64,000 bases of DNA from an uncultured Candidatus Saccharibacteria bacterium (GCA_964446625.1 CAYUPH010000004.1:7838-71837), one strand, 5' to 3'. Positions 1-39,421 are shown, counted from the stretch's first letter. The notes: generated by a model not told the origin, from the letters alone. Translations and numbers: made by a program.

Positions 1-2580
1 AACAGTGTCTCCTGGAGTATAGGTTCCATCAGCACTTCCTGAGGTAAATGAAGTAAGTGTGGGAGCGGTCACATCGACATCTGCTGTGGTAAATGTATAG
101 TCAGAAGATGTCGCATAATTAAATGCCGCGTCACCAGAGGACACCTGAAAGTGGTAAGTGGTACTAGGCGTAAGTCCTGAGAGAATTATCTGGTGACTAG
201 AAGTCAAAGAAGAAGAGCTCGATGCTGTACCATATCCTGTTGTAGCTCCAAAATTAACTGTTGATGTTGAGTTTTCGTTTGTATTCCATGTAATTGTTGC
301 AGTTGTTGTCGTTGTTGAAGAGGCAACATTTGAAATCACAGGCGCAGTAGTGTCAGGAGCGGATAAAGTTGTAAGGGAGTATTCTGTTGAAGTAGATGTG
401 TTTCCATAAGCATCTCTCGACACAAGGGCAAAATAATAGAGCGTTCCACCTGAAAGACCTGTCATTGTGAGACTCTGCGATGTACGGAGCGCACTACTTG
501 AAGTTGAAGTAGTATAGACTCCACTTGTTGTTCCATACCAAATCGCTGAGTCTGCACTTTCGTCTGTTGTCCAATCCACTGTCGCTGTTGTAATTGCAGA
601 TGATGTTGCGACAGAAGATATAGCAGGGCTTACTCCATCAATAACAATTTCCTTATTGTCATTTAGGTTCACTCCCGGAGAAAAACTCACCATAGAATTA
701 TCATCTGCATCTTTTATTGTTCCTGAGACAGAAGAAACTGAAAGATCTAGGGAATTATCTCCTGCCTGCACAGTATAATTACAAGTTCCTGTAGTTGAGT
801 TGCTTACTGTAAATGTACAAGTTCTGTCTGTTGATCCAGTTTCAAGAGTCACTGTGACTAGACCAGTTGAAGTCACCGCTTCAGAAAAAGTAACATCTAT
901 ATCAATTACTTCTCCGACTCCATAGGTTCCATCTGCTTTATCAGAAGAAATATTTGTAATTGTTGGTGCTCCGGAAGTTGTTGTAAAAGTATAGTCTGTT
1001 GTAGTTGCGCTGTTTCCGGTGCTATCTGTAGCATATAAAGCAAAGTGATAAAGTGTGTTTGAGGTAAGTCCAGAAAGACTCACTGAATGCGTACTTGTTC
1101 CTGTTGAAGTAGAAGTGGTACCGTATGAAGTTGATAATCCGAAACGCGCAGAAGACGAAGCTGCTTCATCAGTGTTCCATGTGATTGTCGCGGTTGTTTC
1201 TCCTGTTGTTGAGGCAACACTTGAAATTGCAGGTGGAGTTGAGTCTCCGCCAGAAAGGTAATATACAAAGGCATCTGCAACGGCATTACTGTCTCCTGAG
1301 ACGAGGTTTGTTGCAGCGGAAAGGAAACCAACATATGTTCCATTTGGCGACATTGCAGTGTGTCCACTTGTCACATCGGCGTTTCCTAACGAATCATCAT
1401 TCGCATAGCTTGCAATTTTAGTAGTACCAAGTGTTCTATCACGAATAAAAATATCACCATGTGCATTTGTGTCTCCTGGTACAAGGTTTGTTGCGGTAGA
1501 ATAAAAAGTAACATATCGGCCACTATCTGAAATAGCCACACCTGCTCCAGAGAGAGCATTTGCCTGTGATTCATCGTCAGCAACCGATACCCTTTCCGTT
1601 GTTCCTAATGTACGGTCACGAACAAAAACATCAGCTATTCCGCCACTATCACCAGTAACAAGACTGTCTGAATCAGATACAAAAGTAACATAGCGCCCAT
1701 CAGAAGATATTGAAACTGTTGACCCTGTCACAATTCCTGAAGCAACCTCCGCTTCTCCATCTGAAACACTGATTCGCTCCGTAGTTCCAAGTGTTCGGTC
1801 ACGCAAAAACGTATCGTCGTTTCCATTCGAATCCCCTGCAACTAAGTTTGATGCAGCGGAGTTAAATGCTATGTAGCGCCCATCATCTGAAATCGCTACT
1901 CCTGTTCGTGTATTAGCATTCCCAAGACTTTCATCATCCGCAAGAGAAACTATCTCAGTAGTTCCAAGGGTCCTATCGCGCAAAAAAACATCTGTTTTTA
2001 CATTCGAATCTCCTGCAACAAGGTTTGTAGATACTGATTGAAAAACAATATATCGTCCATCTGGAGTCATTGCCAGAGTTACTCCGTTTACAGCACTGTT
2101 TCCATTTCCAATAGATTCGTCGTCACCAATAGAAACAATCTCTGTTGTTCCGAGTTGTCTGTCTCGAATAAATGCATCCGCTTTGCCGTTTCCGTCCCCA
2201 GCTACAAGGTTTGTGGCGTTTGATAAAAAAAGCACATACCTTCCATCTGGTGAAATTACTAAACGTCCAGAAGAATTACCAACATCTTGTTTTACTCCCG
2301 CTGTTGAAACGCTAATAAGCTCTGTAGTTCCAAGTGTTCGATCCCGAACGAAAACATCAGCAACAGTGTCACTATCTGTAGGCACCAGGTTTGTTGCAGT
2401 AGAAAGAAATGCTATGTAGCGTCCGTCTGAAGAAACAGCAAGAGTAATAGTTGCTGCATTTGCCTCAATTTCATCGTCTGCTAAAGAGACTCTTTCTGTT
2501 GCTGCAAAAAGAGAGAGTGGCTCAATTAGAAAAATTAATGCCAAAGAAAAAATCGCGATTTTGTTCGTTTGTTTAAACAT
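1..2580 (-). CDS. secreted surface protein, partial (C-terminal part lies beyond window start): signal peptide, ~6 PD40/TolB-like beta-propeller repeats, then >=4 Thr/Ser-rich FN3/Ig-like modules
   Basis: Minus-strand ORF opens at ATG 2578-2580 (MFKQTNKIAIFSLALIFLIEPLSLFAATERVSLADDEIEANAA...) and stays open to position 1 (verified by manual translation, no stops). Motif F-S-x-A-T-N-L-V-x-G-D-x-N-x-x-D-V/A-F-V/I-R-D-R-T-L-G-T-T-E repeated ~6x (PD40 repeat), then ~90-aa T/S-rich modules with conserved W and Y-H-F-A (FN3-like). Absent from ORF track only because it runs off the edge. Confidence 0.75.
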   Translation of the reverse strand, partial: MFKQTNKIAIFSLALIFLIEPLSLFAATERVSLADDEIEANAATITLAVSSDGRYIAFLSTATNLVPTDSDTVADVFVRDRTLGTTELISVSTAGVKQDVGNSSGRLVISPDGRYVLFLSNATNLVAGDGNGKADAFIRDRQLGTTEIVSIGDDESIGNGNSAVNGVTLAMTPDGRYIVFQSVSTNLVAGDSNVKTDVFLRDRTLGTTEIVSLADDESLGNANTRTGVAISDDGRYIAFNSAASNLVAGDSNGNDDTFLRDRTLGTTERISVSDGEAEVASGIVTGSTVSISSDGRYVTFVSDSDSLVTGDSGGIADVFVRDRTLGTTERVSVADDESQANALSGAGVAISDSGRYVTFYSTATNLVPGDTNAHGDIFIRDRTLGTTKIASYANDDSLGNADVTSGHTAMSPNGTYVGFLSAATNLVSGDSNAVADAFVYYLSGGDSTPPAISSVASTTGETTATITWNTDEAASSSARFGLSTSYGTTSTSTGTSTHSVSLSGLTSNTLYHFALYATDSTGNSATTTDYTFTTTSGAPTITNISSDKADGTYGVGEVIDIDVTFSEAVTSTGLVTVTLETGSTDRTCTFTVSNSTTGTCNYTVQAGDNSLDLSVSSVSGTIKDADDNSMVSFSPGVNLNDNKEIVIDGVSPAISSVATSSAITTATVDWTTDESADSAIWYGTTSGVYTTSTSSSALRTSQSLTMTGLSGGTLYYFALVSRDAYGNTSTSTEYSLTTLSAPDTTAPVISNVASSTTTTTATITWNTNENSTSTVNFGATTGYGTASSSSSLTSSHQIILSGLTPSTTYHFQVSSGDAAFNYATSSDYTFTTADVDVTAPTLTSFTSGSADGTYTPGDTV

Positions 2581-6850: not shown

Positions 6851-6880
6851 AACAAAAAAACAGGCAGAGCCTGTTTTTTT
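6851..6880. terminator. rho-independent terminator (CAGGC-aga-GCCTG with flanking A/T runs)
   Basis: aaaaaaacaggcagagcctgttttttt; about 20 nt downstream (minus sense) of the small ORF 6901..7011 and therefore ends the two-component operon. Confidence 0.7.
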
Positions 6881-6900
6881 GTTGCTTTAAAGAAAGGAAA

Positions 6901-7011
6901 TTACTTTTTTTTCTTTGCAGCAATTTTAGCTCTCTTTACTGCAAGTCTTTTTTTTGTCTTGCGAGATCGAGAGGCTTTATTTTTGATGTCTTGTGATAAT
7001 CTTTTAGCCAT
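6901..7011 (-). CDS. 36-aa Lys/Arg-rich small ORF (MAKRLSQDIKNKASRSRKTKKRLAVKRAKIAAKKKK), unknown function
   Basis: Hand-translated; ATG 7009-7011, TAA 6901-6903; below the 60-aa cut-off of the ORF track; located between response-regulator gene and a terminator, 38 nt after the stop of 7050..7478. Confidence 0.35.
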   Translation of the reverse strand: MAKRLSQDIKNKASRSRKTKKRLAVKRAKIAAKKKK

Positions 7012-7049
7012 ACTTATATTATAGCCTCCTTTTACCTGGAAAGACAACT

Positions 7050-7478
7050 TTATTTTGTGGACACCCCCTCCTTCTCTCCTTCTGCAAGAATTTCTTCTGC
7101 TTTTTTCAAAATATCATGTAAAGAAAACTCAGACTTCACCATGTATGCTTTTGCTCCGTTTTCGAAGCAAAAATCAATATCGTCCTTTTGACTAAGACTC
7201 GACATAACAAGGACGGGTATAAGCGAGAAAGTGCTGTGCTCCTTGAGACTCTTCAAAAAATCAAAACCGTTTATTTTGCCAGGAACAATAAGGTCAAGAA
7301 GAATGAGGTGTGGAGTTTTTCTTTTAAGCTTTTCTCCTGCTTCCTCGAAATTCTCCGCAACAGACACATCAAAGCCCGAGGTACGAAAAGCATAGCAAAT
7401 AGGCTTTGAAATGAGCGCATCATCGTCAATGATGAGAATTTGTTTTTGTAGATTTTTAAGAGAAAAAGAGTAATCCAT
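7050..7478 (-). CDS. single-domain response regulator (CheY-like receiver) with short C-terminal extension
   Basis: 142 aa; ILIIDDD...LILLDLIVPGKINGFDFLK...VLVMSS...AKAYMVK: receiver-domain D-D-...-D/K landmarks. Confidence 0.8.
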   Translation of the reverse strand: MDYSFSLKNLQKQILIIDDDALISKPICYAFRTSGFDVSVAENFEEAGEKLKRKTPHLILLDLIVPGKINGFDFLKSLKEHSTFSLIPVLVMSSLSQKDDIDFCFENGAKAYMVKSEFSLHDILKKAEEILAEGEKEGVSTK

Positions 7479-7667
7479 TTATTTCTTTTCACTAAGAAGA
7501 GTATTTATTTCTTTGACTGCGCTTTTAATATGGGTCACAATCTCAGAATTTTTATCACTTTTCATTGAATAGTTTTTCTCAAGAAGTTCTATATAGAGAA
7601 GAATACTTGCTAGTTTTCCACGAACGTCATGAACCCATTTTTTGTTTTCTTCTCCTCTTTCTGACAT
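7479..7667 (-). CDS. stand-alone HisKA/DHp-like phosphotransfer-domain protein (62 aa from Met at 7665-7667)
   Basis: MSERGEENKKWVHDVRGKLASILLYIELLEKNYSM...: H-D-V-R-G-K-L-A-S-I matches the histidine-kinase H-box (H-E-L-R-T-P-L-x-x-I); ATG is 1 nt after the TAA of the upstream OmpR gene and its stop abuts the next receiver gene (translational coupling). ORF track lists a longer 7479..7709 version overlapping the upstream gene. Confidence 0.55.
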   Translation of the reverse strand: MSERGEENKKWVHDVRGKLASILLYIELLEKNYSMKSDKNSEIVTHIKSAVKEINTLLSEKK

Positions 7668-7668
7668 T

Positions 7669-8358
7669 TTATTTTCTTTGTGTGAACGAATCCCGAAGTC
7701 TATATCCAACTCCTCTCACCGTTTCAAGGATTCCCCCTTTGCCAAGCTTCATTTTTTTGCGAAGTCCATTTATATGAACATCTATAATGTTACTAAGAGA
7801 TGAAAAGTTAAAATCCCATGCATGGTCAAGGATTTGGTCTCGCGGAATTACTTTGTTCGGATAGCGCATCAGGTACTCAAGGACACTAAACTCCTTTAGT
7901 GTGAGTTTAATTTCCTCACCATCTTTATATACCTGCCGTGTTTGTGGGTTTAACACTATATCTCCCACAATGAGCTCCGAGTCTTGAACTGATTTTGGTC
8001 GCCGAAGAAGGGCCTGAAGCCTTGCAACAAGCTCGTTTACTGAAAAAGGTTTTGTAATATAATCATCCGCTCCGATGTTTAACGCAGCTACTTTTTCTTC
8101 AACATCACTTTCCCCTGAAAGCATCACAATTGGAGTATCGATTTTTGCTTCCCTTACCCTCTTACAAATTTCTTTTCCACTAATCTCTGGAATAAGCATA
8201 TCAAGAAGGATAATATCGTAAGAACCTCCATGAAGAAGGACATGCCTAAGCGCTTTTTCTGCTTCCAAAAAAACATCAACCGCAAACCCTTCGCCTTCAA
8301 GGACTTTTTTTATTCCTTCAGCAAAGATTGCATCATCATCGATAAGTATTATTTTCAT
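7669..8358 (-). CDS. OmpR/PhoB-family response regulator (receiver + winged-helix DNA-binding domain)
   Basis: 229 aa; MKIILIDDD...IILLDMLIP...DTPIVMLSGESD...ADDYITKPFSVNELVARL; C-terminal ...KLTLKEFSVLEYLMRYPNKVIPRDQILDHAW...GYRL trans_reg_C pattern. Confidence 0.9.
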   Translation of the reverse strand: MKIILIDDDAIFAEGIKKVLEGEGFAVDVFLEAEKALRHVLLHGGSYDIILLDMLIPEISGKEICKRVREAKIDTPIVMLSGESDVEEKVAALNIGADDYITKPFSVNELVARLQALLRRPKSVQDSELIVGDIVLNPQTRQVYKDGEEIKLTLKEFSVLEYLMRYPNKVIPRDQILDHAWDFNFSSLSNIIDVHINGLRKKMKLGKGGILETVRGVGYRLRDSFTQRK

Positions 8359-8397
8359 GGTTTAATTATAGAATTTGAACATTAAGTCTTCATGAAG

Positions 8398-8763
8398 CTA
8401 CTTTATATGAGTCTTTACTTTTGAGAGGAGTTCCTCGAGCTCAAATGGTTTAGGAAGAAAGTCATTGGCACCACACTCCTCTGCAATAACAGCAATATCT
8501 TTGTTTGCTGAGACCAAAATAATAGGCAAGTCCGCTGTATCTTTCTTCTTTTTTAGGTGTTCACACACTTTCTTTCCATCCACACCTGAGAGCCATATAT
8601 CAAGAAGAAGCAGGTTAGGAATATCCTTTTCGAGGTGAAGCGCATCCATTCCGTCCCTAGAAAGGAGAACCTCATACCCTTCGCTCTCGAGAATTATTCG
8701 TAACGCATCGGAAATAGCAGGATCATCCTCTGCTACCATGATTTTTTTTGGTTGCTCATTCAT
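8398..8763 (-). CDS. single-domain response regulator (CheY/Spo0F-like receiver)
   Basis: 121 aa; KKIMVAEDD...LLLLDIWLSGVDGKKV...LPIILVSA...GANDFLPKPFELEEL. Confidence 0.85.
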   Translation of the reverse strand: MNEQPKKIMVAEDDPAISDALRIILESEGYEVLLSRDGMDALHLEKDIPNLLLLDIWLSGVDGKKVCEHLKKKKDTADLPIILVSANKDIAVIAEECGANDFLPKPFELEELLSKVKTHIK

Positions 8764-8767
8764 ATTT

Positions 8768-10675
8768 TTACCAATCTAAAAGTTGCCTCTTTTTTTGCTT
8801 CTTTTTCGGAAGCTCAATAATAAATTTGGACCCTCGTCCTTCTTTGCTTTCTACCCAAATTCTTCCTTTTTCTTTTGTCATTATTTGCTTACAGATATAA
8901 AGCCCGAGTCCGAGTCCTGGATAAGTCTCTCTATCCTGGCCACTTACTCTAAAAAATCTCTTGAAAATCTTGTCCTGCATTGCAAGCGGAATTCCTAGAC
9001 CAAAATCTTCAACAGAAAGTTGTACTTTATCCCTGAGTTCAAGAACATTCGCGACAATCCTCCTTGAATCTGGAGAATACTTTATAGCATTTGTAAGTAG
9101 GTTCATTATAACCTGACCCATTCTATCCCTGTCACAGACAACCATTGCACTCGTGTCTCCTGTAAGAAGAATCTTGTGCTTATGTGTTGTTACCTGTACT
9201 TCATCTACAATCTCTTTTGCAAGATCGTAGAGATCACAAGTAACTGGTTCAAAAGTAAGCTTACCTCCTTCGATTTTTGTCACATCCAATAGATCGTTAA
9301 TAAGTTTTGAAAGGCGCCCGAGCTGTCCGTTTACTTTTCCAAGAACCTCAGCAGTTGCATTGTCTCCTCTCCCTTTGAGCTGTTTTTCAAGAAGTTGCGT
9401 GTAGGCCTTCACACTTGTTACAGGTGTACGAAGCTCGTGAGTAACAATACCCATAAACTCATCTTTTTGCTTTTCAATTCTCTTCTGCTCGGTTATATCT
9501 CTTTGAAGTCCCCACACTCGCAAAAGCTTGCCGTGCTCAATAATTGCGGACACATTGTTTATAAGATATTTCTTCTCTCCTTTTTTATCTGTTCGCATAA
9601 TGACATACTCCTGTAACTGGTAGTCACAGCGAATAAAGTCACGAATATGCTCTTTTATTTCTTCTTCAAAGTCCGAAGCGAAATCTCGAAGTTTCATTCC
9701 CACAAAGCTTTTTGTCTTTCCAATGCCATATATGATTCCCATAGCAGCGTTACATTCTGCCAGAATCGCATTGCGATAGATAAAGTTAATTTGTTTCTTT
9801 ACCGAAAGAGATATCGGCATTGGCTCTTCGAGCTCAAGTTGGTAAATACCTTCGGAACTGTGAGCAATAAATGCTTCGTATTTTTCTTTACTTGCAATAA
9901 GACTATCTTGTGTTTTTTTAAGATCACTAATATCTCTAAATGTTGCCGTTACTCCAATCACTCTCCCTTCTCTATCTTTGATTGCTGAAGCCGTAAGAGA
10001 TACATCAACTCTTCTTCCCCCCTTTGCAAGCTGAACAGTCTGAACACGAGGATGACTTTTTCCTTGTCGCATAAGTTCAAGGAACTTTCTGTGCTCATGC
10101 ATATTTTCATAAGGCACTAGCATTGCGAGGCGCTCTCCTATTGCCTCTTCTTTTTTATAGCCAAACATGTTTTCTGCACCTCTGTTCCAGGTCAAAATTT
10201 CTCCCTCTGTACTAAAACTGAGGATCGCGTCGCGTGAGGACTCAACAATTTCCGAAAGCCAGTTTCTTATCTTTTCTGTTTCGTGACGTTCTGTTGAATC
10301 ATAAAGGACGCCCGAGATTCGAACAGGAAACTTCCCCCGAACTTCCGCCACTCGTCCATAAATTCGAATCCATCTAATTTCTTCTGTATCACCTCTAATT
10401 ATGCGAAAATCACCTTCGAGACTTCCACTCTTTAACGCACCAGTAAGTTGCTTTTTAAAATATTTTCTATCACTTTCGTAAATTAACTTTATGAAGTCCT
10501 TCATTCCTCCTCGCCGGCTAGTAACTCGTACACCAAAAATATCAAAAAACTGTTTGTTCCACAGAATCTTGTCTGACGGAATATCCCAATCAAAGCTCGC
10601 TAATTCTGCTGCTTCGAGGGCCACCTGAAATCTCTTTTTAGGGTCATAATGAAATATGTCCTGCATATCCTGCAT
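8768..10675 (-). CDS. cytoplasmic multi-PAS sensor histidine kinase (HisKA + HATPase_c)
   Basis: 635 aa, no TM segments; several PAS-like blocks; H-box THELRTPVTSVKAYTQLL; N-box/G-boxes NLLTNAIKYSP...VEDFGLGIP...GLGLGLYICKQI. Confidence 0.9.
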   Translation of the reverse strand: MQDMQDIFHYDPKKRFQVALEAAELASFDWDIPSDKILWNKQFFDIFGVRVTSRRGGMKDFIKLIYESDRKYFKKQLTGALKSGSLEGDFRIIRGDTEEIRWIRIYGRVAEVRGKFPVRISGVLYDSTERHETEKIRNWLSEIVESSRDAILSFSTEGEILTWNRGAENMFGYKKEEAIGERLAMLVPYENMHEHRKFLELMRQGKSHPRVQTVQLAKGGRRVDVSLTASAIKDREGRVIGVTATFRDISDLKKTQDSLIASKEKYEAFIAHSSEGIYQLELEEPMPISLSVKKQINFIYRNAILAECNAAMGIIYGIGKTKSFVGMKLRDFASDFEEEIKEHIRDFIRCDYQLQEYVIMRTDKKGEKKYLINNVSAIIEHGKLLRVWGLQRDITEQKRIEKQKDEFMGIVTHELRTPVTSVKAYTQLLEKQLKGRGDNATAEVLGKVNGQLGRLSKLINDLLDVTKIEGGKLTFEPVTCDLYDLAKEIVDEVQVTTHKHKILLTGDTSAMVVCDRDRMGQVIMNLLTNAIKYSPDSRRIVANVLELRDKVQLSVEDFGLGIPLAMQDKIFKRFFRVSGQDRETYPGLGLGLYICKQIMTKEKGRIWVESKEGRGSKFIIELPKKKQKKRQLLDW

Positions 10676-38790: not shown

Positions 38791-39049
38791 ATCTTTCCCG
38801 CGACTCAAAACTTTTTCGTCAAAAAGTTTTAGCCTCTGCACAGCCTCACTTCCGAGCTTTGCTAAGCTCTAACTTTGGCATCAAAAGTGAAGGGGCTTGA
38901 TCCTTACAGGATCAGTACACCTTTTGGTGATTTTGTTTCGTTCCTCACAAAATCAGCTCAAAAGGTTTTCAAGTCCCTTACGCAAGTGCCCCGCACTTGC
39001 TCACTCGCACAAAATAAAAAGCCGCCAAATTTGGCGGCTTTTTATTTTG
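38791..39049. repeat. copy C of tandem module, directly abutting the genuine tRNA-Asp gene; contains an inverted tRNA-like T-arm fragment (ggttttcaagtccctta) and a terminator hairpin
   Basis: Direct tandem repeat of copy B over its first ~110 nt; a diverged homolog lies at 59517..59800. Confidence 0.75.
39014..39047 (-). terminator. terminator of the tRNA-Met/tRNA-Asp transcript (GCCGCC-aaattt-GGCGGC + T-run)
   Basis: aaaagccgccaaatttggcggctttttatttt immediately 3' of tRNA-Asp (minus sense). Confidence 0.75.
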
Positions 39050-39123
39050 CGCGAGTGAAGGGACTTGAACCCTCGGCCTTCCGCGTGACAGGCGGACGCT
39101 CTAACCAGCTGAGCTACACCCGC
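39050..39123 (-). tRNA. tRNA-Asp (anticodon GUC)
   Basis: GCGGGTG-TA-GCTC-AGCTGGTTA-GAGC-G-TCCGC-CT-GTC-AC-GCGGA-AGGCC-GAGGG-TTCAAGT-CCCTT-CACTCGC-G; discriminator G as expected for tRNA-Asp. Confidence 0.85.
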
Positions 39124-39191
39124 ATAGGTGCTTGTCCAAAGAGGTCTTTAGACAAGAGAATTATACACAAAAATAGAAAAACTCAAAATTG

Positions 39192-39264
39192 TGTCGGGAG
39201 TGGGGATTGAACCCACGACCCCAGGCTTATGAGTCCTGTGCTCTACCAACTGAGCTATCCCGAC
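39192..39264 (-). tRNA. tRNA with CAU anticodon (elongator tRNA-Met or tRNA-Ile2), unusual A31*G39 mismatch
   Basis: GTCGGGA-TA-GCTC-AGTTGGTA-GAGC-A-CAGGA-CT-CAT-AA-GCCTG-GGGTC-GTGGG-TTCAATC-CCCAC-TCCCGAC-A; G1:C72 pair argues against initiator. Confidence 0.75.
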
Positions 39265-39278
39265 GAATTACAAAGATG

Positions 39279-39307
39279 ATATTACAAGAAAAATGCATTA
39301 TTTGCAA
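39279..39307 (-). promoter_or_regulatory. sigma70-type promoter for the tRNA-Met/tRNA-Asp operon (-35 TTGCAA, 17-nt spacer, -10 TAATAT)
   Basis: Minus-sense TTGCAAataatgcatttttcttgTAATAT, -10 ends ~15 nt before tRNA-Met 5' end. Confidence 0.6.
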
Positions 39308-39421
39308 AAAAATACAAAAAAATATATACTAGCCCCTACATACTGCGGGGTAGAGAAGTAGTATCTCGCAAGGCTCATAACCTTGAGGCCTCAGTGCAAT
39401 TCTGAGCCCCGCAACCAGTAT

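Follow-up and report, generated by a model that had tools for sequence, protein, structure and literature searches.

A 62-residue DHp-only protein encoded among response regulator genes: a candidate histidine phosphotransferase

Introduction

In Spo0B (PDB 1ixm, 1f51), the histidine that can be phosphorylated sits on the first helix of a hairpin; this hairpin dimerises into a four-helix bundle and carries phosphate from a receiver-only protein to a regulator that binds DNA. The protein has 192 residues, including a C-terminal alpha/beta (pseudo-CA) domain, and its gene neighbours obg and the genes for ribosomal proteins L21 and L27 (PMC6136694). ChpT, a dimeric phosphotransferase of the DHp type, serves two targets from an intermediate receiver: CtrA, which is OmpR-like, and the receiver-only CpdR (PMC3433190, PMC9981736). 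It has about 225 residues, an atypical or degenerate Bergerat-fold C-terminal domain and a proline kink after the H-box (PMC3433190); the intermediate receiver of its relay is fused to the kinase. The HPt proteins (Ypd1, ArcB-HPt; PF01627), which also act between receivers, are monomeric four-helix bundles of about 120 residues. "Domain A" of EnvZ (5b1n, 5b1o), a laboratory truncation with the canonical H-D-L-R-T-P sequence, shows that a DHp hairpin can stand apart from the remainder of its kinase.

Rv0600c-Rv0601c-tcrA of M. tuberculosis is listed as two sensor kinases and one regulator (PMC3544749). In this system, as in Myxococcus RedCDEF, several genes of one operon share out the functions of the kinase or encode additional kinase-like proteins. 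The Rv0600c/Rv0601c and RedCDEF proteins are larger, however, with other domains retained, and none is known to be a hairpin of about 60 residues or to belong to a three-receiver cassette. Here we describe such a hairpin, sDHp, encoded in a 64,000-nucleotide stretch of DNA (the window) from an uncultured Candidatus Saccharibacteria bacterium.

Results

The cassette occupies the minus strand in the order HK-RR1-OmpR-sDHp-RR2, with intergenic gaps of 4, 39, 1 and 0 nt (Table 1). All the ORFs listed in an earlier note on this DNA were found in their places, and on that strand, by an ORF and Pfam check. The OmpR stop codon (7671-7669) precedes the sDHp ATG (7667-7665), which leaves 1 nt between them, and the sDHp TAA (7481-7479) abuts the RR2 ATG, which starts at 7478; the close packing described in the note is thus borne out by the coordinates. 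Close coupling on both sides is not a general feature, however: among the other lineages the corresponding gaps lie anywhere between -11 and +38 nt.

Table 1. Features of the sDHp cassette and of the end of the operon
Feature	Coordinates	Strand	Evidence
Sensor HK, soluble multi-PAS, 635 aa	8768..10675	-	ORF + Pfam
RR1, receiver-only, 121 aa	8398..8763	-	ORF + Pfam Response_reg only
OmpR-family response regulator, 229 aa	7669..8358	-	Pfam Response_reg + Trans_reg_C
sDHp, 62-aa DHp-only (HisKA-like) ORF	7479..7667	-	Pfam HisKA, AlphaFold2, family, synteny
RR2, receiver-only, 142 aa	7050..7478	-	ORF + Pfam Response_reg only
Lys/Arg-rich 36-aa ORF between RR2 and terminator-like hairpin, doubtful	6901..7011	-	ORF only
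Intrinsic-terminator-like hairpin + U-run, operon end	6851..6883	-	RNA fold

Pfam resolves the kinase into PAS_3, PAS/PAS_9, HisKA and HATPase_c, with a third PAS-like stretch, and its phospho-acceptor, His413, lies in a canonical HELRTPV. The transmitter half is conserved in loci L025, L027 and L030. The sensor part varies among loci, from a 421-aa to an 803-aa kinase, whereas the transmitter is retained together with the four genes that follow; HK and RR1 are spaced by 4, 1, -8 and 20 nt in four loci. RR1 has a complete active site (E12-D13-D14, D55, S85, K105-P), and its class is 44-60% identical across loci. The OmpR-type regulator joins a receiver (Response_reg, 4.5e-27) to a winged-helix DNA-binding domain (Trans_reg_C, 6e-24). 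RR2 forms a class of its own, distinct from RR1 and 39-80% identical across loci, with DDD18-20, D62, S92/93 and K114, the last followed by Ser rather than Pro ("AYMVKSEF"). All three receivers keep the full phospho-acceptor site. A canonical kinase beside an OmpR regulator has no need of a relay and could phosphorylate all three directly, a point that we count against the relay proposed below; we do likewise with the absence from the RR1 sequence of a FATGUY-type motif, which occurs in some intermediate receivers (PMC9981736).

sDHp is encoded by a real gene that is under constraint. Gene callers predict it on 15 same-species contigs, and when 1.84 billion proteins were searched exhaustively with HMMER, a rare family emerged (8 clusters, 56-66 aa as called) with orthologues in 7 further lineages. 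These are only 31-42% identical to the sDHp of the window, and the family comparison spans just 8 lineages. The ORF is nonetheless intact in each of them, at 61-68 aa after correction of the L027 start, with the histidine 10-13 residues from the start, and seven residues never vary: His13, Arg16, Lys18, Leu19, Leu24, Ile47 and Lys48. The lineages have diverged to saturation at synonymous sites (dS > 1 or undefined); dN/dS, where computable, is mostly 0.2-0.6. Conservation of the small ORF, which the earlier note had singled out as a point to check, thus extends to its histidine (8/8).

The cassette is also syntenic. The gene directly upstream is of the OmpR type in all eight lineages, and a receiver gene then follows. 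The complete order HK-RR1-OmpR-sDHp-RR2 is kept in L025 and L027/L028, and in L030 as far as the contig end, while OmpR-sDHp-REC is found in L023, L024, L026 and L029. Seven of the eight lineages have sDHp between OmpR and RR2. In L029, where the kinase gene is convergent, the receiver adjoining sDHp belongs to the RR1 class, and sDHp is therefore linked to RR1 as well as to RR2.

By sequence and predicted structure, sDHp appears to be a HisKA-type DHp hairpin, and it has no CA domain. The segment around His13 reads V-H-D-V-R-G-K-L-A-S. Pfam HisKA (PF00512) matches six of the eight family members at E<=1 (best 3.3e-7), the window sDHp with E 1.7e-4 and 22.0 bits, under the gathering score of 26.9; NCBIfam matches are solely to the DHp segments of the VanS, PhoR and NblS models. 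When the family profile was compared with that of the cassette kinases' DHp, the match was modest (E 5.7e-4, probability 29%). Both the score below gathering and this modest match are counted against the relay. AlphaFold2 folds the single chain as a helical hairpin (helices 3-32 and 38-60, pLDDT 88), for which Foldseek ranks 5b1o_A, the isolated EnvZ DHp, first (probability 0.96, TM 0.73); chain 7n0e_A of the RetS/GacS DHp co-complex is also among the structural matches. The 62 residues give no HATPase_c match, and the next gene encodes a receiver in every locus. The earlier statement that this protein cannot be a kinase is right, since a CA domain is missing from it. The reading as a kinase or kinase fragment was rejected on this ground, together with the lack of any full-length kinase at E<=1e-3 in the exhaustive search (1.84 billion proteins) and the mere 2.6 bits that the family HMM gives the cognate kinase DHp. 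The centre of sDHp had been said to reproduce the kinase H-box. His13 does align with His413, but the resemblance is loose (22% identity over 49 aa, pairwise E 3e-4) and key H-box residues differ. Of the models suggested for searching the product, those for Spo0B and ChpT found nothing: with a cut-off of E<=1, none of the eight members was matched by Pfam SPOB_a, SPOB_ab or HPTransfase, nor by Hpt.

The H-box itself departs systematically from that of kinases and appears to be of a transfer type. The family consensus is H-[DN]-x-R-[GS]-K-L; the canonical H-[ED]-x-[RK]-[TN]-P is absent, so that sDHp has neither the phosphatase Thr/Asn nor the helix-kinking Pro. By contrast, H+1 is E, H+4 is T or N and H+5 is P in every one of the 8 complete kinases of the studied loci. 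At H+4, sDHp carries Gly (7/8) or Ser (1/8), the residues that occupy this position in 87% and 10% of HPt proteins (PMC6341664 Table 1), while kinases carry T/N, which EnvZ needs for its phosphatase activity (PMC6341664). Lys at H+5 and Leu at H+6 recur in the HDWMNKL of Spo0B, a sequence confirmed against PDB 1ixm. Position H+1 is acidic in 6/8 members, Asn replacing Asp in L023 and L030. An asparagine here speaks against any requirement for the general base of ATP-dependent autophosphorylation. Finally, at the six specificity positions, taken as in PMC6136694 Table 1, the kinases of these loci read TSAYQ[LI] and sDHp ASLYE[LI]. Residues so similar, yet distinct at 3/6 positions, would fit overlapping but non-identical partner sets for the kinase and sDHp.

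Discussion

We propose that sDHp acts as a histidine phosphotransferase, dimeric and consisting of a DHp alone, in a relay running from the kinase through RR1 and sDHp to OmpR and RR2, a reading that, judged from sequence, we consider evenly balanced between right and wrong. Its hairpins would probably pair into a homodimeric four-helix bundle, like those of kinase DHp domains, Spo0B and ChpT. The PAS kinase would autophosphorylate (H1) and hand the phosphoryl group to RR1 (D1), the receiver-only protein translationally coupled to it; RR1 would in turn phosphorylate the invariant His13 of sDHp (H2), reversibly. From there phosphate may reach the OmpR-type regulator (D2), giving a transcriptional output, and also RR2 (D3), which would serve either as another output or as a sink for phosphate. 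That sDHp dimerises, that its His13 is phosphorylated and that phosphate moves in this order and direction are steps that we infer. The five genes would make up a self-contained phosphorelay with the logic of KinA-Spo0F-Spo0B-Spo0A and a branch as in CckA(Rec)-ChpT-CtrA/CpdR. In this role, the likeliest of those considered, sDHp would be the smallest relay protein of the Spo0B/ChpT type so far seen.

Kinase activity is absent in Spo0B and sDHp alike, the H-D-x-x-x-K-L spacing is common to them (HDWMNKL in Spo0B, HDVRGKL in sDHp), and in sDHp, too, a histidine on helix 1 is predicted to be phosphorylated. Unlike spo0B, the sDHp gene adjoins OmpR-type and receiver-only genes in 8/8 loci and so shares an operon with the genes presumed to encode its partners. 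Membership of the Spo0B family was rejected, sDHp being entirely without the C-terminal alpha/beta domain and unmatched by SPOB_a or SPOB_ab. The branching of ChpT is the topology proposed here for OmpR and RR2; in the sDHp cassette, however, the intermediate receiver is a separate gene, RR1, and sDHp has no Pro kink. Nor is sDHp a ChpT family member, as it has no C-terminal Bergerat-fold domain and no HPTransfase match. With HPt proteins it shares the proposed H2 role, a small residue at H+4 and a basic one at H+3; its two helices, 62 aa, relation to HisKA and lack of an Hpt match set it apart from that family. In size (58-65 residues per chain) and predicted fold it equals EnvZ domain A, but sDHp is encoded by a natural gene, and its residues at H+4 and H+5 are G/S and K.

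It is tempting to speculate, although we hold this a shade more doubtful than not, that sDHp founds an undescribed family of natural DHp-only phosphotransferases of about 60 residues, the smallest histidine-phosphotransfer proteins known, whose H-box has converged on the HPt pattern "H-x-x-[KR]-G" and which form the hub of a portable, self-contained H1-D1-H2-D2(+D3) cassette with a sensor module that lineages can exchange. If true, sDHp would in essence be Spo0B or ChpT reduced to a bare hairpin.

One could also envision a split kinase, in which the CA domain of HK phosphorylates His13 in trans with ATP and no RR1 step intervenes; sDHp~P would serve OmpR and/or RR2 and the kinase's own DHp would serve RR1, one catalytic domain thus feeding two donor bundles of differing specificity. 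The isolated EnvZ DHp of 58-65 residues is stable, its structures are the top Foldseek matches of sDHp, and it is reportedly phosphorylated in trans by a separate CA domain (Park, Saha and Inouye, 1998). The acidic H+1 kept in most members agrees with this arrangement, as do the diverged specificity residues, which are expected of a donor with other targets. It is nevertheless unlikely: H+1 is Asn in two lineages, the Pro that kinks helix 1 of the kinase at H+5 is an invariant Lys in sDHp, and RR1 would be left without a role, yet it is conserved and adjoins sDHp in L029.

The earlier note had left open whether the protein is a phosphotransferase or a decoy that heterodimerises with the kinase. 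As a decoy or anti-kinase, sDHp, itself unphosphorylated, would form heterodimers or hetero-bundles with the kinase DHp or mask its receiver-docking face, tuning kinase output by the logic of RetS-GacS or Sda-KinA. The hairpin is indeed sized like a DHp protomer, a RetS/GacS chain is among its structural matches, and co-expression from the same operon would fix the stoichiometry. An inhibitor, however, needs no phospho-acceptor, yet His13, D/N14, R16, G/S17, K18 and the helix-2 K48 are the most conserved residues; moreover, the family profile misses the cognate kinase DHp, and this low score and the 22% identity therefore give no sign of interface mimicry. Conservation of the histidine, its polar flanks and an HPt-like H+4 thus favours the phosphotransferase, with the route of the relay conjectural, and makes a decoy quite improbable.

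We give the same low credence to a role as phosphatase or scaffold, in which sDHp would speed dephosphorylation of OmpR~P and/or RR2~P, as the isolated EnvZ DHp can do for OmpR~P, or hold the two together. Phosphatase activity is reported for the isolated EnvZ DHp (Zhu et al., 2000), and the position of the gene between OmpR and RR2 in seven lineages agrees with such a role, but the Thr/Asn of HisKA phosphatases at H+4 (PMC6341664) is replaced by G or S throughout the family.

That the ORF is spurious, or is what remains of a decaying kinase gene once 3' of the OmpR gene, is highly improbable despite the usual response regulator-then-kinase layout and the window score below gathering, because the ORF is intact, constant in length and invariant at key residues in 8 lineages with saturated synonymous sites, an open 62-codon frame at such composition has an estimated chance of roughly 1-2% per lineage, and a receiver gene rather than any CA-domain remnant follows sDHp in every locus. 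The signs of a spurious overlap named in the earlier note (loss of the ORF or of its histidine, no HisKA-like HMM match) are accordingly not seen. That same usual gene order suggests that sDHp, a candidate phosphotransferase today, probably arose from a trimmed kinase.

The poly-Lys ORF, which had been counted as a member of the operon, does exist but is probably not part of the system. It is not conserved: it is absent from a 15-billion-protein collection, called on no same-species contig and without a family match, and it has no counterpart downstream of RR2 in L023, L025, L026, L027 or L029. Beyond it lies the terminator-like hairpin, which folds at -18.4 kcal/mol (z -4.55; 0/200 shuffles fold as well), and an analogous hairpin directly follows RR2 in L023.

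A conserved five-gene cassette

The minus-strand series described in the earlier note (a kinase, a receiver, an OmpR-type regulator, a 62-aa ORF and a second receiver) is borne out by the ORFs present and by their Pfam domains (see the table). Here HK denotes the kinase, RR1 and RR2 the two receiver-only proteins, and sDHp the DHp-only (HisKA-like) product of the 62-aa ORF. The five genes are separated by 4, 39, 1 and 0 nt. All three receivers (REC) retain the acidic pocket, the phospho-acceptor Asp, the Ser/Thr and the Lys, and inspection of the kinase revealed no hydrophobic N-terminal stretch suggestive of a membrane segment. The window (G+C ~39%) has the content of an ordinary bacterial chromosome, with LigA, GatA, CTP synthase, PilB and DinB; the contigs matching it are all metagenome-derived. 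A 36-aa poly-Lys ORF had also been counted as a component of the operon. This Lys/Arg-rich frame (MAKRLSQDIKNKASRSRKTKKRLAVKRAKIAAKKKK), with AAAGGAGG 12 nt upstream of it, is not called by gene finders, is absent from a 15-billion-protein collection, matches no family and has no counterpart in any other cassette locus; it is therefore left out of the system.

Coordinates and gene orders of the features discussed (positions in the window unless a locus, L, is named)
Feature	Position	Strand	Description
HK, 635 aa	8768-10675	-	ORF; Pfam PAS_3, PAS/PAS_9, HisKA, HATPase_c
Poly-basic C-terminal tail of HK	8768-8810	-	..PKKKQKKRQLLDW
RR1, receiver-only, 121 aa	8398-8763	-	ORF; Pfam Response_reg
OmpR-type regulator, 229 aa	7669-8358	-	ORF; Pfam Response_reg + Trans_reg_C
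sDHp, 62 aa	7479-7667	-	ORF; Pfam HisKA below gathering score
RR2, receiver-only, 142 aa	7050-7478	-	ORF; Pfam Response_reg
Lys/Arg-rich ORF, 36 aa	6901-7011	-	Between RR2 and terminator hairpin
Hairpin + U-run	6851-6883		End of operon unit; fold -18.4 kcal/mol, z -4.55
Surface protein, 836 aa	10735-13245	-	DUF11/CLIPPER + NPCBM_assoc; C-terminal membrane anchor
Secreted-looking protein, 374 aa	5137-6261	-	Signal peptide, peptidoglycan-binding-like N-terminus
tRNA cluster	39049-39417	-, -, +	tRNA-Asp, tRNA-Met, second tRNA-Met
L025			HK (803 aa, PAS/GAF), RR1, OmpR, small ORF, RR2
L027/L028			HK (421 aa, single PAS), RR1, OmpR, small ORF, RR2
L027, poly-basic kinase tail	1730-1769		..TGKTKTKKKKNG
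L030			HK, RR1, OmpR, small ORF, then contig end
L030, poly-basic kinase tail	1650-1730		..AKKKNKFKRVARKQRIPANKRSIRSK
L023, L024, L026 (partial contigs)			OmpR, small ORF, RR2-class receiver
L029 (partial contig)	1-1252		OmpR, small ORF, RR1-class receiver, then convergent kinase C-terminus (963-1250, -)
HisKA-only ORF P0021, 88 aa	L067 489-758; L068 152-418		Short contigs; H-box HEIRTPL

Across the loci that carry sDHp relatives, the conserved core consists of the kinase transmitter and the four genes downstream of it; the sensor part of the kinase varies. Identity within a receiver class reaches 44-60% for RR1, 56-69% for the OmpR receiver and 39-80% for RR2, and falls to ~20-35% between classes; judged by these values, each class is orthologous from locus to locus and separate from the other two. 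Gene order differs in L029, where the receiver following the small gene is 41-56% identical to RR1 proteins and 26-31% to RR2 proteins. No RR2 was seen on this short contig, which may carry a four-component version of the relay considered below. The coupling of the small ORF to its neighbors, as proposed in the earlier note, holds insofar as junctions are tight everywhere (flanking gaps of -11 to +38 nt over all loci), the exact 1-nt and 0-nt spacing being limited to the window's species. Gaps between HK and RR1 are 4, 1, -8 and 20 nt. Stop-codon read-through that would fuse sDHp with RR2 was considered and rejected: the in-frame abutment is confined to the window's species, and gaps of 5-28 nt are found elsewhere.

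RR2 and its orthologues at L023, L025, L026 and L027 belong to an unusual receiver subfamily, in which the Lys-Pro (cis-peptide) hallmark is replaced by Lys-Ser, one residue is inserted ('AYMVKSKFS') and a Pro lies within helix 1. The FATGUY-type motif, sought as a mark of intermediate receivers, is absent from RR1 and RR2, an absence that is uninformative rather than negative. The cassette kinases, for their part, end in poly-basic tails (see the table).

A rare family of stand-alone DHp proteins

Gene finders call the 62-aa ORF on 15 contigs of the window's species. The operon DNA of these contigs is 99.9-100% identical, so that they are uninformative on selection. The closest RR2 homologue (43% identical) lies on a 2.3-kb NCBI contig behind an OmpR C-terminus and a 63-aa ORF (MFTDKKEQAHNIRGKLAIILLYVELLE...). 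The two small proteins were combined into a profile, with which HMMER searched 1.84 billion representative proteins, no word index being used. Only ten proteins scored at E<=1e-3, and no full-length kinase was significant. Eight of the ten, each 56-66 aa long, belong to one family; the others are a repeat artefact and an unrelated 88-aa HisKA fragment. The unrelated HisKA-only ORF P0021, whose H-box is canonical, may be a kinase in truncated form or a further stand-alone DHp.

Family members are 31-42% identical to the window protein. For one member the gene call was too short and left out the His, which is regained from the true start, at an 11-nt overlap with the OmpR stop. The small ORF and its His, to which the earlier note had drawn attention, are kept in eight lineages, and the eight-member alignment has H13, R16, K18, L19, L24, I47 and K48 invariant and D/N14, G/S17, A20, Y25, E27, E30 and K52-E53 nearly so. 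Between lineages synonymous sites are saturated, which limits dN/dS (mostly 0.2-0.6 where computable); SNPs within the species are of no use in testing for selection.

The family is rare: it makes up eight 50%-identity clusters among the 1.84 billion representatives, and members outside the window's species turned up on no more than one or two contigs each. Word-indexed protein searches with the 62-aa query or the two-sequence profile returned only the query itself and one orthologue, the index being too coarse for proteins of such length. Metagenome scans with a four-sequence profile and a degenerate H-D-x-R-G-K-L-A DNA pattern yielded only L030 (the same as L042, from a microbial-mat metagenome); the other 35 matches to the pattern were due to chance. 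A contig search with the cassette kinase found no close relative, the best match (34% identical) lying in a gammaproteobacterial MAG with no synteny. ORFs of this kind, of ~60 aa, are unnamed and lack a Pfam match in most records, and a census of two-component systems would wrongly enter these cassettes as 'one kinase plus three regulators'.

Pfam HisKA is the sole family to recur (six of eight members, best E 3.3e-7). This favors the HisKA-like character claimed for the product in the earlier note, although the window protein itself scores below threshold (22.0 bits against a gathering score of 26.9). The Spo0B/ChpT likeness finds no profile match: Hpt, SPOB_a and the ChpT C-terminal domain are matched by none of the eight. 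Among NCBIfam entries, kinase models (VanS, PhoR, NblS) match in their DHp segments only, and the family profile found nothing meaningful among PDB sequences. The neighboring kinase DHp has not recently given rise to the family: identity is 22%, hhalign gives E 5.7e-4, and the family HMM scores the kinase at only 2.6 bits. The most apt description of sDHp is that of a divergent HisKA-type DHp existing alone, a natural counterpart of the laboratory construct EnvZ 'domain A'. Functionally, Spo0B and ChpT come closest, but sDHp lacks their C-terminal alpha/beta domain and differs in neighborhood; from HPt proteins it differs in having two helices. In the searchable literature on stand-alone or DHp-only proteins we met no such family; as negative evidence this is weak.

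A transfer-type H-box

Cassette kinases carry the H-box H-E-L-[RK]-T-P, and all eight complete kinases of the loci studied have E at H+1, T/N at H+4 and P at H+5 (positions counted from the phospho-acceptor His). The sDHp family has H-[DN]-x-R-[GS]-K-L. Thr or Asn occupies H+4 in most kinases, as required for EnvZ phosphatase activity, whereas HPt proteins carry Gly (87%) or Ser (10%) there, and bulkier residues nearly abolish Ypd1 phosphotransfer (PMC6341664). With Gly in seven members and Ser in the eighth, the sDHp family sets the HPt solution into a HisKA scaffold. An invariant Lys stands in place of the Pro by which helix 1 is kinked in kinases and ChpT; Spo0B (H-D-W-M-N-K-L, checked against PDB 1ixm) likewise has Lys at H+5 and Leu at H+6. 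At the six specificity positions (H+7, +8, +11, +12, +14 and +15; PMC6136694, Table 1) kinases read TSAYQ[LI] and the small proteins ASLYE[LI], related yet distinct. Under simple antiparallel helix pairing in a predicted model, the invariant I47 and K48 of helix 2 would face these positions, in the zone where receivers dock on DHp.

A possible relay and its alternatives

One ATP-using kinase, three intact receivers and an additional His, carried by a DHp hairpin whose H-box is of the transfer type, make up a parts list that fits a multi-step relay. We think it probable that His13 is a phosphotransfer site. The particular route is an even call: phosphate would pass from kinase His413 to RR1 Asp55, thence to sDHp His13, and from there to OmpR Asp53, affecting transcription, as well as to RR2 Asp62, a second output or a sink. 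Such a branch would mirror that of ChpT to CtrA and CpdR (PMC9981736), a DNA-binding regulator and a receiver-only protein. Given the coupling of HK and RR1, RR1 resembles the detached receiver of a hybrid kinase, and OmpR-sDHp a regulator-kinase pair with the kinase trimmed to its DHp.

Alternatively, the ATP-binding catalytic (CA) domain of the kinase could phosphorylate sDHp directly in trans, which seems unlikely. The H+1 residue, general base for kinase autophosphorylation, is Asn in place of Asp in two of the eight members, and the H-box as a whole argues for transfer, not catalysis. One could also envision a non-phosphorylated decoy acting in the manner of RetS/GacS or Sda; this is more doubtful still, since conservation is highest at His13 and the polar residues around it, and no sign of interface mimicry is seen. 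A dedicated role as phosphatase or scaffold is equally doubtful, T/N being absent from H+4. Last, a spurious ORF is highly improbable: neither a chance ORF nor a decaying pseudogene is compatible with a frame that stays open at constant length and keeps its polar residues invariant despite saturated synonymous divergence.

To our knowledge, dimeric DHp-type phosphotransferases occur in few systems only (Spo0B, ChpT), both of which retain a degenerate catalytic domain. While a DHp-type phosphotransferase in a relay is an established concept, the sDHp cassette is, from its sequence, a clean and compact candidate system. If the phosphotransfer reading is true, a natural family devoid of the catalytic domain would mark the smallest unit that suffices for His-Asp phosphotransfer, and the cassette would provide a compact, single-operon relay of five proteins for dissecting specificity and branching in vitro or in synthetic circuits. 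It would also illustrate one evolutionary path to a relay, in which the kinase of an ordinary regulator-kinase pair is cut back to its DHp.

Neighboring genes

The gene for the 836-aa surface protein lies directly upstream of the kinase (gap 59 nt) and is not kept beside the cassette in other lineages. The 374-aa protein has no Pfam match on record; beyond its N-terminus it is highly acidic, with repeated AEDLLDEAED..DDEEYDEAEDLAK units. Elsewhere in the window, three tRNA genes are packed inside 370 nt.
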